Source: Alphaproteobacteria bacterium (GTDB taxonomy: Bacteria > Pseudomonadota > Alphaproteobacteria > CALKHQ01). Taken from it: a stretch of 64,000 nt of DNA. The DNA is taken from assembly GCA_965227515.1 (NCBI GenBank), contig CBDDFZ010000001.1, positions 512,001 to 576,000 on the forward strand. The letters are read 5' to 3'. Every line of letters starts with the position of its first letter. Position 1 is the first letter of the stretch. Shown here one piece after another: positions 45,169-49,085 of the stretch. Made by a program: the position numbers and the translations under genes. The notes beneath the pieces are model-generated. The model was not told the DNA's origin. It did not search any database and saw only the letters and a list, made by a program, of their open reading frames with translations.

Positions 45169-46329
45169 ATGGCAAAACGTGACTACTACGAGGTTCTCGG
45201 CGTCGACCGCGGGGCCGACGCCGACGACCTGAAACGGGCCTATCGCAAGCTCGCCATGCAGTTTCACCCGGACCGCAATCCGGGCGATACCGATGCCGAA
45301 CGCCAGTTCAAGGAAGTCGGCGAGGCGTACGAGATCCTGAAGGACCCGGAAAAGCGGGCTGCCTACGACCGCTTCGGTCATCAGGCCTTCGAGGCCGGGA
45401 TGGGCGGCGGTGGCGGGCGCGCCGGCGGCGCTGGGTTCGACTTCAATTTCGCCTCAGGGTTCGCCGACATCTTCGACGAGATGTTCGGCGACGCCATGGG
45501 CGGACGCCGGCGTGGACGCGGGCGCGGGTCGGGCCGTGGCGCCGACCTGCGCTACGACATGGAAATCACCCTGGAAGAGGCGTTCGCCGGCAAGCAGGCC
45601 GGCATCCGCGTGCCGGGGTCCATCCAGTGCGACACCTGCAACGGCTCCGGCTCCGAAGGCGGGGCCGCGCCGGTCAACTGCTCCACCTGCGGCGGCCACG
45701 GCAAGGTACGCAGCCAGCAGGGCTTCTTCACCATCGAGCGCACCTGCCCGGCATGCCAGGGCGTCGGCCAGACCATCGAGACCCCGTGCAAGGACTGCAG
45801 CGGCTCCGGCCGGCTGCAGCGGGAACGCTCGCTGTCGGTGAACATTCCGGCGGGTGTGGAGGACGGCACCCGCATCCGGCTCGCCGGCGAGGGCGAGGCC
45901 GGGTTGCGCGGCGGCACCAATGGCGACCTTTACATCTTCCTCGCCATCCGGCCGCACGACTTCTTCAAGCGCGAGGGCGCGGACCTGTTCTGCCAGGTGC
46001 CGATCACCATCGTCGACGCCGCCCTGGGCGGGTCGATCGAGGTGCCGACCATCGACGGCTCGCGCGCCAAGGTGACGGTGCCGTCCGGCACGCAGAACGG
46101 CAAGTTGTTCCGGTTGCGTAACAAAGGCATGTCGGTCATGCGCTCCAACGCGCGCGGCGATATGTACATCGAGGTCGGGGTCGAGACCCCGGTCCACCTG
46201 ACCCGGCGCCAGGAAGAGCTGTTGCGCGAGTTCCAGGAGGCCGGCGGCACCGAGCGCAAGCACAGCCCGCAGTCGGCCGGCTTCTTCGCCAAGGTGAAGG
46301 AATTCTGGGACGACCTGACGGACAGGTAG
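45169..46329 (+). CDS. dnaJ: Chaperone DnaJ
   Basis: HPD J-domain, G/F region, four CxxCxGxG motifs. Confidence 0.98.
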
Positions 46330-46360
46330 AACAGACCGCCTCTCTCCATACGCCCCTACT

Positions 46361-46665
46361 TGTCACCCTCGGCCTTGCGCCTGCTGGGCTCATACTTCAC
46401 ACCAACACAACATCGTCATCCTCGGGCTTGTCCCGAGGATCCATTCATGGGGCGGTCCGCGCCAGTGCCGATCGAAGCTGAAGTGGTGAGCCATTGCATC
46501 CATGCGCTCGCCAATCCAGGCGCCGAATCACCTCAACCTATCGAGGTTCTGGACAAATATGGGTCCTCGCCACAAGGGCGAGGACGACAATGGTTTAGTT
46601 CTTGAGAAATCGAGCGAAGCCTTGCGAGATGTGCGAAGCCCGCAGGGACAAGCCCGAGGACGACG
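46361..46665. repeat. Nested REP-doublet cluster
   Basis: Inner arms 46410-46444 and 46559-46594; outer inverted arms 46361-46390 and 46637-46665. Confidence 0.75.
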
Positions 46666-46798
46666 GTGTGAATTTGCCAATCAAGTAGATGGGCTAACGG
46701 CCCTTGTTTGGTGGCGTGCATGAGTGGTCGTCCCTCAAGATGTCGGTGTCATACACGGAGTCGGGTTTGCCGCTCCAAGACATCGAGGAGAGACGACC

Positions 46799-47842
46799 AT
46801 GAACTACTATGCCGGGATTGACGTTTCTTTGGAATGGTCATCGGTATGCGTTGTTGACGGCGCGGGCGGGATTGTCTGCGAGGCTCGTATTGCGAGCACG
46901 CCGGCGGGTTTGTTGTTGTGGTTTGGGTCTTTGGGGATTTCGGTTGAGCGGATTGGTCTTGAGGCGGGGCCGTTGTCGCAATGGCTTGTGCGGGAGTGCG
47001 CGCAGGGCGGTCTTTCGGTTGAGTTGCTGGAGACGCGTCATGTTGCGCGGGCCCTTTCGACGATGCCGGTGAAGTCGGACCGCTCGGACGCACGCGGGAT
47101 TGCTCAGCTGATGCGTGTGGGCTGGTTTCGTCCGGTTCACTGCAAGTCTTTGGCGGCCCAGGAGATGCGGGCCCTTTTGAAGGGTCGCGACCAGCTCCGC
47201 GCGAAGCTGCACGATCTTGAGATGCACCTTCGTGGTCAGCTGCGGAACTTCGGGCTGAAGGTAGGGCACACCACCAGGCGCAGCTTTTCGACACGTATTT
47301 CGGAGCTTGTGGCGGGGCATCCGGTACTGGAGGCGGTGGCGGGGGCGCTGCTGTCGGCACGCGATGGCCTGTTGCTATCGTTCACGGCGCTGGACCGGCA
47401 GGTCCGGGCGGCGGCGCAGGCCGACGATCGCGCTCGCCTGCTGATGACGGTGCCGGGCGTGGGGAGCATTGTCGGACTGACCTACTTGTCGGGAGTGGAC
47501 GACCCCGGGCGGTTTGCCTCGTCGCGCCTGGTGGGTGCGCACTTCGGCCTGACGCCGACCAAGCGCCAGTCGGGCGAGAGCGAGGTGATGGGGCGGATAT
47601 CGAAGGTAGGGGACGCCGATGTGCGCTCGGCCCTCTATGAGGCGGCACACGTGGTTCTGACCCGGCCGATCGAGGGCGGCTGGCTGAAGAGCTGGGCGAT
47701 GAAGCTGGCCAGGCGTGCGGGCATGAGGAAGGCGAAGGTCGCGCTGGCGCGCCGGCTCGCCGTGATCATGCACCGGATGTGGGTTGACGGCACACCGTTC
47801 AACCATGCCGGACCGGTGCGCCCGGCGATGGCGACAGCATGA
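46799..47842 (+). CDS. IS110-family DEDD recombinase/transposase
   Basis: AGIDVS, GLEAG, KSDRSDARGIA, TVPGVG, FGLTP..QSG, ISKVG, KAKVALARRLA; GAGGAG RBS. Confidence 0.96.
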   Translation: MNYYAGIDVSLEWSSVCVVDGAGGIVCEARIASTPAGLLLWFGSLGISVERIGLEAGPLSQWLVRECAQGGLSVELLETRHVARALSTMPVKSDRSDARGIAQLMRVGWFRPVHCKSLAAQEMRALLKGRDQLRAKLHDLEMHLRGQLRNFGLKVGHTTRRSFSTRISELVAGHPVLEAVAGALLSARDGLLLSFTALDRQVRAAAQADDRARLLMTVPGVGSIVGLTYLSGVDDPGRFASSRLVGAHFGLTPTKRQSGESEVMGRISKVGDADVRSALYEAAHVVLTRPIEGGWLKSWAMKLARRAGMRKAKVALARRLAVIMHRMWVDGTPFNHAGPVRPAMATA

Positions 47843-47874
47843 TGGCCGCGGCATAAGGAGAACCGACACACGAG

Positions 47875-48075
47875 CTTCGACGGGCACCGACACCGGCCCG
47901 TCGAGCGCCGTCCCGCGCCGGGACGATGGATCAGGTCAGGCCGCCATCCGGGATGTCGCCTCGCATGAGAGCACGCTTCCGTAGATTGGACCGACCGATC
48001 CTCGCATATCCATCTTGGCGGCGGCCCTGCGCCGACCCCGTACAGAAGCATGACCCAGGCGCCGGGACGACGAAA
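47875..48075 (+). ncRNA. Predicted bridge/seek RNA of the IS110 element (boundaries approximate)
   Basis: Target-matching segments CCATCCGGG (47944-47952) and GTAG (47981-47984); donor-junction-matching segments CCATCT (48010-48015) and TACAGAAG (48041-48048); each pair flanks an inner hairpin. Confidence 0.8.
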
Positions 48076-48108
48076 AAGGGATTGACCAACAATGGCCCGT
48101 TACAGAAG

Positions 48109-48194
48109 CCCGGATGGAGCGAAGCACAATCCGGGGAAATGGCCACGGCTGGCGCGGAATTACCCCGGGTTCCACTGCGTTCCACCCGGGCTAC
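48109..48194. repeat. GTAG-type REP doublet, first copy interrupted by IS110
   Basis: [GTAG]CCCGGATGGAGCGAAGCACAATCCGGGG plus intact inverted copy GTAGCCCGGGTGGAACGCAGTGGAACCCGGGG (minus strand, 48194-48163). Confidence 0.85.
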
Positions 48195-48209
48195 GGAGAA
48201 ACATCGCCC

Positions 48210-49085
48210 TCAATTCAGTTTCGCGCGCAGTTGCTGGATCAGAGCGGCGGTCAGGTGGCGGCGCGACTGGCTGTCATCGCAGGCGAGCGATTCCTCCAGC
48301 GTCATGACGGCGGCGCGCAGATTGCCGAGTTCGGCATGCAACATCCCCATGTCGCGCCAGGCGAGCGGGTTCTGCGGGCCGATCCAGGTCATCGCCTCCA
48401 CCACGGCCAGCGCGTCCTCGAACCGGCGCTGGCGGATCAACCGCAGGCGCAAATTCTCCTGCAGCCGCATCAGGATGTCCCGGTTGCTCAGGGGCGCGTG
48501 GTGGGCCGGTTCCAGCTCCGCCTGCTCGCCCAGCGCCGCCTTCACCAACCGGCGCAAATCATGGGCTTCCAACAGATTGCCATTGTGGAACGGATCGACG
48601 ACAAGGCGCCCCTCCGCGCCGCTCAGCGCGATCAGGAAATGGCCGGGGAAGTTCATGCCGTCGGCCGGCCAGCCCTGGGCGCGGGCCACGTGCAAGTAGA
48701 TGATCGACAGCGCGACCGGCAGGCCCTTTCGCCGGTCGATCACCCGCAGCAGATTGGCATTCTGCAGGTCGTTATAGGTGTCCTGGTCGCCGCTGTAGCC
48801 ATTGGCCCCGGCGATCACCGCGCGCAGGGTTTCCACCCGTCCCGATAGCCCGTCAGCGCCTTTCAGCGCCACCGCCTCGGCCATCGCCTGCAAATGGCGG
48901 CGATAGTGGTCCAGGTCGGCGCCAGGCCGGGTGAGCAGGCCCAGGCGCAGCGCCACCTCGGTCAGGTCGACGTCCTCGTCGGTCTGGCCGCCGACGTCAC
49001 GCAGATACTGCTTGGTGTCCGTGTCGAGCACGCGGTTCCCGTGGCGGGCGCGCAGCTGTGTGACTCCGGCCGCGGCTTCCATCAC
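48210..49085 (-). CDS. SirB1-family (transglutaminase-like + TPR) protein
   Basis: VIDRRKGLPVALSIIY, GMNFPGHFL, VDPF, ILMR..NL, RDMG. Confidence 0.88.
   Translation of the reverse strand: MMEAAAGVTQLRARHGNRVLDTDTKQYLRDVGGQTDEDVDLTEVALRLGLLTRPGADLDHYRRHLQAMAEAVALKGADGLSGRVETLRAVIAGANGYSGDQDTYNDLQNANLLRVIDRRKGLPVALSIIYLHVARAQGWPADGMNFPGHFLIALSGAEGRLVVDPFHNGNLLEAHDLRRLVKAALGEQAELEPAHHAPLSNRDILMRLQENLRLRLIRQRRFEDALAVVEAMTWIGPQNPLAWRDMGMLHAELGNLRAAVMTLEESLACDDSQSRRHLTAALIQQLRAKLN

Follow-up and report, generated by a model that had tools for sequence, protein, structure and literature searches.

We describe an insertion sequence (IS) at positions 46689-48108 of a 64,000-nt stretch of DNA, referred to here as the window, from a genome assembly labelled Alphaproteobacteria bacterium (CALKHQ01; GCA_965227515.1, contig CBDDFZ010000001.1, 512,001-576,000 of the forward strand). 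It is very probably an intact element of the IS1111 group in which an RNA of the seekRNA or bridge RNA type, from the non-coding region 3' of the transposase gene tnp, guides the transposase. Two short segments of this region match the two sides of the insertion point on opposite strands, overlap at that point and covary with the target, and we regard them as almost certainly the target guides. Two further segments match the junction that would form between the element's own ends, and these may serve as donor guides.

An element fixed at a host palindrome

The ends of the element were set by its copies. A BLAST search of the window's own genome (two contigs, 5.5 Mb) returned 20 full copies at 89-100% identity and one internally deleted copy, and all 20 full copies read GTAG / ATGGGC...ACAGAAG / CCYGGRTG across their flanks and ends, in a single orientation. 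Since the same flanks recur in every copy, the element is fixed at 46689-48108, with AG on both sides. Its main features are as follows.

46689..48108, + strand: insertion sequence, right-hand AG core included; 1420 bp; 20 full-length copies; ends set by flanks
46685..46688, + strand: left target flank GT and left copy of the AG core; GTAG stands directly before ATGGGC in 20/20 copies, and the joint of a contig from run X3 overlaps by 2 bases
48107..48108, + strand: right copy of the AG core, from the element's own sequence, the flanks of the copies and the X3 contig joint
46695..46712, + strand: left subterminal inverted repeat, imperfect (16 matches in 19 columns against the reverse complement of 48085-48102)
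48085..48102, + strand: right subterminal inverted repeat, partner of 46695-46712
48109..48135, + strand: host repetitive extragenic palindrome (REP), CCCGGAT-N13-ATCCGGG; its 5' arm is the right target flank
46799..47842, + strand: tnp, encoding a 347-aa DEDD transposase (D8, E55, D94, D97; GLTPxxxxSG with S258-G259)

The subterminal inverted repeats begin 6 nt (left) and 4 nt (right) inside the element ends. The insertion point is the foot of the REP hairpin, and all 20 copies stand at GTAG|CCYGGRTG. The genome holds 124 uninterrupted GTAG+CCYGGRT sites, 112 of them with the 3' arm AYCCRGG and 107 with the 13-nt loop. When the eighth base is required, 114 empty sites are counted (CCCGGGTG 60, CCTGGGTG 33, CCCGGATG 18 and CCTGGATG 3), which together with the 20 occupied sites make 134 candidate sites.

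Four segments of the tail match the junctions of the element

The stop codon of tnp occupies 47840-47842, and because the open reading frame ends at 47842 the non-coding tail is 266 nt long (47843-48108), against 110 nt on the 5' side. An initial annotation of this DNA had proposed that four segments of the tail match, in order, the target flanks and the element ends, and all four can be read directly in the sequence.

47944..47952, + strand: segment 1, putative guide for the right target flank; pairs with the top strand at 48109-48117, 9/9 Watson-Crick
47979..47984, + strand: segment 2, putative guide identical to left flank and core (CCGTAG, of which GTAG matches here); pairs with the bottom strand
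48010..48015, + strand: segment 3, candidate donor guide, reverse complement of AGATGG; unpaired in a multiloop
48042..48048, + strand: segment 4, candidate donor guide ACAGAAG, equal to right end and core; the 8-mer TACAGAAG starts at 48041
47985..47986, + strand: AU next to the 3' end of segment 2, invariant; complementary to AT, with which the left end opens, and not to the target

Segment 1, CCATCCGGG, is the exact reverse complement of the right flank at 48109-48117 (CCCGGATGG), and segment 2, as GTAG at 47981-47984, repeats the left flank and core at 46685-46688. Segment 3, CCATCT, is the reverse complement of the core and left end at 46687-46692, while segment 4, as the 8-mer at 48041-48048, repeats the right end and core at 48101-48108; a repeat search also returned a direct repeat (D13, 48036-48049 and 48096-48109, 86%) that takes in this last match. 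The further remark that the core reads CT on the bottom strand is correct.

To gauge chance, 47843-48100 was shuffled 20,000 times with its dinucleotides preserved. The shuffles with a match numbered 138 for segment 1, 3709 for segment 2, 816 for segment 3 and 11 for segment 4; 0/20,000 had both segment 1 and segment 4, and 0/20,000 had all four in order. It could be argued that the matches are incidental or hitchhiking and that the protein alone reads the REP sequence or its hairpin, given that REPs are structured and attract several IS families and that the target is partly palindromic. The shuffles contradict this, as does the covariation of the right and the left flank described below.

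Target guides and target sites vary together

Within the genome, the 20 tails fall into two subfamilies: A, with 13 copies including that in the window, carries CCATCCGGG as segment 1, and B, with 7 copies, carries CCATCCAGG. The guide ends in ...CCGGG in A and in ...CCAGG in B, G47950 of the A subfamily being A in B, and this G or A faces C or T in the target. Subfamily A copies lie in CCCGGATG (9), CCCGGGTG (2) and CCTGGGTG (2), and subfamily B copies in CCTGGGTG (6) and CCTGGATG (1). Thus stated by site class, CCCGG sites hold 11/13 A copies and 0/7 B copies, and CCTGG sites hold 7/7 B copies (Fisher p = 4.6e-4). The preference persists when site availability is counted: for A, 9/27 perfect-match sites are occupied vs 4/107 others (p = 6.6e-5), and for B, 7/45 CCT sites vs 0/89 CCC sites (p = 3.5e-4). 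Every non-Watson-Crick position within flank bases 1-8 is a G-T or U-G wobble, a pattern to which we give no weight because the REP itself varies mainly by those transitions. The three other differences between A and B tails map to a hairpin loop, a bulge and a loop of the fold presented below.

Relatives were collected by a scan of one genome per species, which gave 80 loci with transposase identities of 61-68%; 5 of these, mostly at contig ends, have no recognisable right end, and 75 were kept. After removal of duplicate tails, 61 tails were aligned with MAFFT without fitting (alignment A2). Outside A2 stand 8/67 distinct tail rows with large insertions or a duplicated end (L053, L058, L069, L073, L080, L091, L112 and L123), and within it 2/61 rows lack 12 nt of right flank, one more lacks 9 nt and 7 more lack the left flank. 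The relatives show very little variation at their ends (left, AG|ATGGGG...TAACGGG; right, ...CCCGTTACAGA|AG), and they have the subterminal inverted repeats GTAACGGGCC/GGCCCGTTAC in common; their flanks differ widely.

In A2, a hypervariable block follows a conserved GGCCG. Segment 1 was compared in any register, as a 12-nt guide window against the core and 12 nt of flank, and the control consisted of guide-flank pairs between loci whose targets differ at >=4/8 positions, that is, at least four. The cognate right flank is paired at 7/8 positions or better in 53/59 loci, and at 8/8 in 39, with 26 target octamers covered; non-cognate pairs reach at least 7/8 in 133/2704 cases. For segment 2, the dinucleotide to the left of the core is the same in segment and flank in 45/53 loci (GT 27, GC 9, CT 6, TT 2, GA 1). 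Positions -3 and -4 are identical to the flank in 49/53 loci each, vs shuffle means of 31.5 and 30.8 and 0/2000 shuffles as high, and a weaker excess of identity extends over positions -5 to -7. Segments 1 and 2 therefore covary with their flanks both in the genome and across 59 relatives, which is the check that the initial annotation had proposed for its target-guide reading; its GTAG is present as described, with the correction that segment 2 tends to reach 1-3 nt further upstream.

If the protein alone chose the site, transposases about 61-68% identical with near-identical ends would have to find 26 unrelated octamers, each of which is matched by the element's own guide block, and within one genome a single-base guide difference tracks site choice. 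Together with the ordered set of segments, this makes a protein-only choice of target exceedingly improbable, and we keep to segments 1 and 2 as the target guides.

Individual relatives depart from the common layout. A register shift, or 2-3 extra bases (AAG, AG, AA) between end and match, is seen in L095, L063, L065, L049 and a class with CCTCG targets (L074, L081, L103 and others); the guides of L049 and L063 extend over the core as well. The guide of L076 predicts a CCCGCATG target, its right flank is unrelated, and its interrupted tnp match is stretched over 1424 nt; this copy is probably rearranged or interrupted. In L058 the right end is partly duplicated (CCCGTTACAGGGCCCGTTACAGAAG).

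A conserved fold exposes the guides

The tail is predicted to fold into a domain with the following parts.

47916..48061, + strand: 146-nt domain of the predicted long guide RNA; its closing helix is the long-range stem P0' (47916-47924 with 48052-48061)
47928..48001, + strand: target-binding arm, 74 nt, with stems P1a, P1b and P1c, an internal loop and hairpin P2; recovered by the minimum free energy (MFE) fold, z = -2.17
48017..48039, + strand: hairpin P3 between the donor segments; helix 4, 5/8 pairs with compensatory change

Run on A2, RNAalifold returned unprompted P0' (47916-47923 with 48053-48061), the stem P1c that closes the target loop, and P3, with compensatory change in 11/20 pairs. 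The initial annotation had raised the possibility that the segments are buried in stems, and this is not borne out by the consensus, in which all four are unpaired and which places the guides in loops of a conserved secondary structure. Helix 1 (P0') has compensatory change in 4/9 pairs and 94.3% of cells paired; helix 2, in the target arm, has 13 pairs, 5 with compensatory change, and 95.1% of cells paired; in helix 4 (P3) one pair changes from GC to AU in 27/61 rows. A fuller structure of 32 pairs (P0', P1a, P1b, P1c, the base of P2, and P3) was counted on the unfitted A2, with helices defined on the row of L046, since the 3' strand of P1 in the window is displaced by one base in the MAFFT alignment. 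Standard pairs fill 95.4% of its cells, and 15/32 pairs show compensatory change; 92 cells are changed on both sides vs 29.4 in shuffles, with 0/500 shuffles as high, and only 32-52% of cells pair when the 3' partners are slid by 1-3 columns. G-U pairs are frequent, for example in 53/61 rows at columns 48/114, which fits the tnp-sense strand as the one that would fold. The three hairpins of the initial annotation (GGATC.GGTC/GACC.GATCC, CTC-gcat-GAG and GGCG..CGCC) all exist in these folds.

The window's own MFE fold recovers P0', P1 and P2. An alternative local hairpin, GTCCC/GGGAC, at the 5' strand of P0' is nearly invariant and inseparable from P0' by covariation. A direct repeat, D1 (GCGCCGGGACGA..., 47915-47935 and 48059-48079), is particular to the window's element, and with it either strand of the long-range stem could form a local hairpin instead. 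A scan of 46300-48500 against Rfam 15, with E up to 10, found no covering family, the only hit being a chance miRNA (E = 2.3).

Several observations weigh against reading the tail as a guide RNA. Right-flank pairing is poor in 6/59 relatives (L055, L062, L065, L076, L084 and L088), and several need a register shift of 1-3 nt. Thermodynamics alone is weak, with z = -1.58 for the whole tail and -0.65 for a 152-nt domain, values that are uninformative on their own because the sequence is G+C-rich. In the window's own MFE fold, bases on either side of segment 2 pair with part of segment 1, an interaction that is absent from the consensus and arises because this particular target is partly palindromic. 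A scan of 46500-48300 for sigma-70-like promoters gave 0 sites, and none of the runs listed is recorded as RNA, a gap in the data that does not count against transcription.

Alternatively, the element's own DNA, in single-stranded form, could act as the guide. RNA and single-stranded DNA of the same strand look alike to covariation and to G-T or G-U pairs; however, in five members of the family the guide is an RNase-sensitive RNA that co-purifies with the transposase (PMC11187229), and the structures of IS621 contain RNA (PMC11208158). We consider a DNA guide very unlikely and take the guide to be RNA in what follows.

Donor segments and a possible handshake

Segments 3 and 4 flank P3 and are oriented towards the circle junction, in which AG joins the right end to the left end, as segments 1 and 2 are towards the target. 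ACAGAAG is invariant in 61/61 rows of A2, and conservation of CCAT is at least 90%. With ends so uniform, there are few tests of donor covariation. Among these, the right end of L091 reads ATAGAAG and so does its internal segment 4; in L107, whose left end is ATGATG, segment 3 is CATCAT, and in L069 and L099 (ATGGTG) it is CACCAT. The 8-mer given for segment 4 by the initial annotation holds in the window and not in relatives, where the base before ACAGAAG varies freely; with its first T not kept, the family match is the 7-mer.

A different reading accepts the target guides and denies that segments 3 and 4 are donor guides: the donor would be read via the subterminal inverted repeats, and the segments would be scaffold or protein-contact bases, or copies of the ends at the DNA level like the A'/B' boxes of ISPpu9. 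In its favour, 15/19 variant left ends are uncompensated, at positions 3, 5 or 6, and the left end of the window's own element is a 16th such case, with a wobble at position 5 and a mismatch at position 6; the invariance of ACAGAAG, moreover, leaves almost no covariation test. A short 82-nt seekRNA of ISEc11, the form in which target matches were located, is sufficient for movement, and the available part of that account reports no donor match for it (PMC11187229). ISPpu9, for its part, makes alternative circles by means of repeated end-like boxes (PMC12288879). On the other side, both segments are single-stranded in a fold supported by covariation and flank a hairpin in the polarity of the target loop, and the changes in L091, L107, L069 and L099 are compensated. 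The internal ACAGAAG is never an element end in the genome, with 0 sites vs 20 at true ends. Furthermore, bridge RNAs have been predicted in 93% of IS1111 elements, with donor-binding bases in a multiloop for many orthologues (Durrant et al., PMC11208160). On balance we find the reading without donor guides possible but rather doubtful, and think it likely, with modest confidence, that segments 3 and 4 act as donor guides; given that the short ISEc11 form suffices with no donor match reported, this role stays an inference.

The AU directly after segment 2 is invariant in all 61 rows of A2. In position and logic it resembles the handshake guide of IS621, from which the rule derives (PMC11208158), and by this resemblance only it may be a handshake guide. 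A handshake-type target match 3' of segment 4, noticed by eye in the alignments, was confounded by clade structure, and we make no claim for it.

Transposase and family

Both Pfam domains of the family are present in the tnp product and pass their cut-offs (the RuvC-like DEDD_Tnp_IS110, PF01548, 1.6e-12; Transposase_20, PF02371, 2.3e-20), and the NCBIfam model NF033542, 'IS110 family RNA-guided transposase', scores 239 bits vs a cut-off of 140. D8, E55, D94, D97, S258 and G259 are invariant among 27 homologs (alignment A1). The C-terminal domain matches IS621 (PDB 8WT6, E = 2.6e-11), GLTPTKRQSG being aligned with the IS621 motif, and ISCro4 (PDB 9T56, E = 3e-11); the N-terminal domain aligns weakly with IS621 (0.7 bits). 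The catalytic residues of IS621 are D11, E60, D102, D105 and S241 (PMC11208158).

The IS1111 group is described as having subterminal repeats of 7-17 bp, a long non-coding region downstream of tnp, transposases of 330-350 aa and the motif GL-P----SG (PMC11187229). Here we find both domains, the DEDD residues with the serine, and site- and orientation-specific insertion with a shared 2-nt core beyond which the target is not duplicated, as in the IS110 family, and subterminal repeats, a longer 3' than 5' non-coding region and a transposase of fitting length, as in the IS1111 group. By these sequence features the element is a member of the IS110 family, IS1111 group, in keeping with the initial annotation, which had described an IS110-type element with its RNA region 3' of tnp. 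In a search of 5.8 billion proteins, identity to the closest non-self transposase is 72%, and thousands of others reach 66-70%; at that distance our element is an IS distinct from the published seekRNA elements such as ISEc11, with the proviso that ISfinder entries were not compared and may include a closer relative.

Activity, variants and surroundings

The open reading frame is free of stops in 20/20 full copies, and judging from these copies our IS1111-group element is intact and has been active recently. In run X3 a contig passes from 46686 straight to 48107, with 1420 bases left out and 2 bases overlapping at the joint, which is the empty-site form; it is one contig only, of depth 2.8 and with a shorter side of 42 nt, and its support is weak. 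No circle junction was found in X1-X4 contigs over 46400-48400, and ACAGAAGATGGG occurs 0 times in the assembly.

The deleted copy (L021/L022, G000:C1:998357-999181) has lost element positions ~718-1298, and with them the 3' half of tnp and the target-binding arm; both ends are kept. Among genomes of the same family, 0/3 others match the transposase query at E 1e-40 or better. Runs X2-X5, which come from other studies and are labelled as other organisms, contain 28-71% of the element's sampled words, and a 1438-nt contig of X3 spans the whole element with 42 base differences and 11 gaps; close variants of the element therefore exist outside the source genome. Just upstream of the element lies a second family of REP-like palindromes, of the GTCCTCG...CGAGGAC type (46410-46440, 46563-46585 and 46640-46665), and run X1 has very high contig depth at two of the three (bins 46400-46466 and 46534-46600).

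Candidate expression signals

48085..48090, + strand: TTGACC, candidate -35 box of a circle-junction promoter; the candidate -10 box, GAAGAT, is complete only at the junction
46724..46800, + strand: structured 5' leader with a long hairpin (arms GGUCGUCCCUC.../...GAGAGACGACC; MFE z = -2.70)

A TTGAC box is present in 75/76 loci, 21 nt from the element end in 66/75, and the junction hexamer GAAGAT in 63/70 loci with a 17-nt spacer; the integrated form is GAAGCC in 20/20 copies of the genome. The candidate promoter TTGACC-N17-GAAGAT would fit the junction-promoter model cited for the family (PMC11187229; PMC12288879). Four terminator-like matches in 46500-48300 are the REP and end hairpins. The leader hairpin would bury the Shine-Dalgarno region along with the beginning of the start codon, and may be a translational brake; its inverted repeat (I11) pairs 46725-46736 with 46788-46799, and the same arms are seen by eye in relatives.

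Discussion

In the mechanism that we propose, an RNA would be made from the tail, probably co-transcribed with tnp from the junction promoter. Its domain at ~47916-48061 would fold as a multiloop closed by a long-range stem, and the internal loop of the arm at 47928-48001 would carry the target guides and direct the element to GTAG|CCYGGRTG in one orientation. The RNA would bind the transposase, CCAUCU and ACAGAAG, single-stranded around P3, would most likely hold the donor circle junction, and the AU after segment 2 would act as a handshake guide. The element may also be reprogrammable by experiment, as the initial annotation suggested; the natural one-base variant between subfamilies A and B tracks site use.

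The closest published parallels are the IS1111-type seekRNA elements ISEc11, ISPa11, ISKpn4 and ISPst6 (Siddiquee et al. 2024, PMC11187229). The element has in common with them a DEDD transposase of ~340 aa with GL-P----SG, subterminal inverted repeats and a long non-coding region 3' of tnp, and ISPa11 likewise targets a REP. The predicted 74-nt arm and 146-nt domain fit the short (70-100 nt) and long (145-170 nt) IS1111 seekRNAs, and the polarity is as published for these, with the top-strand match 5' of the bottom-strand match. Ours differs in its REP target, GTAG|CCYGGRTG. It also has conserved segments complementary to the circle junction, whereas the available part of that account reports no donor matches.

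With the bridge RNA of IS621 (PMC11208160; PMC11208158) the element shares two guide-bearing units, target then donor, each with a longer 5' guide and a shorter 3' guide that address opposite strands and meet at a 2-nt core. It also shares the REP target, the bottom-strand CT core, the C-terminal domain with the catalytic Ser-Gly aligned (E = 2.6e-11), and a handshake-like AU after the short target guide that is complementary to the donor and not to the target. Unlike in IS621, the RNA is encoded 3' and not 5' of tnp, and its strand polarity with respect to tnp is inverted, as has been reported for the seekRNAs of IS1111 elements (PMC11187229); on the bottom strand, both the arrangement of the guides and the CT core agree with IS621. 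Further differences are that the donor segments lie in a multiloop and not in a simple internal loop, that core coverage by segment 1 is not clear, with 1/2 core bases able to pair, and that the N-terminal domains align weakly. ISPpu9 and ISPpu10 of Pseudomonas putida (PMC12288879) resemble our element in REP insertion, in an invariant AG at which both ends recombine and in a structured leader. ISPpu9 differs in having its bridge RNA upstream of tnp and a separate, hitchhiking small RNA (sRNA) module with duplicated end boxes; BLAST of our genome, which returned the 20 full copies and the deleted one, found no such sRNA module or solo copy.

These observations may be joined in a single view, whose chances we judge evenly balanced: the long seekRNA of this IS1111 clade would be a true bispecific bridge RNA, with donor guides in the multiloop and an AU handshake; the 74-nt arm would be the 'short seekRNA', whose published sufficiency would reflect an assay condition and not the natural mechanism; and subfamilies A and B would be a live example in which one mutation in the guide has changed the target, the two dividing the REP variants of a single genome between them.

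The class of system has been known since 2024, as seekRNA (PMC11187229) and as predicted bridge RNAs of IS1111 elements (PMC11208160), and the element is a clear new example of it. Because the class is in print and its annotation is routine, the element leaves existing knowledge unchanged. Its value is as a clean natural data set, in which 20 copies fall into two subfamilies one guide base apart with matching site use, relatives with near-invariant ends have 26 targets, and 134 sites can be counted. Such a data set shows how far guide-target pairing, wobbles and distal mismatches included, governs natural site choice. The element also offers a compact 347-aa recombinase with a defined target loop, and its conserved donor-complementary segments in the multiloop bear on the role of the long seekRNA form in IS1111 elements.

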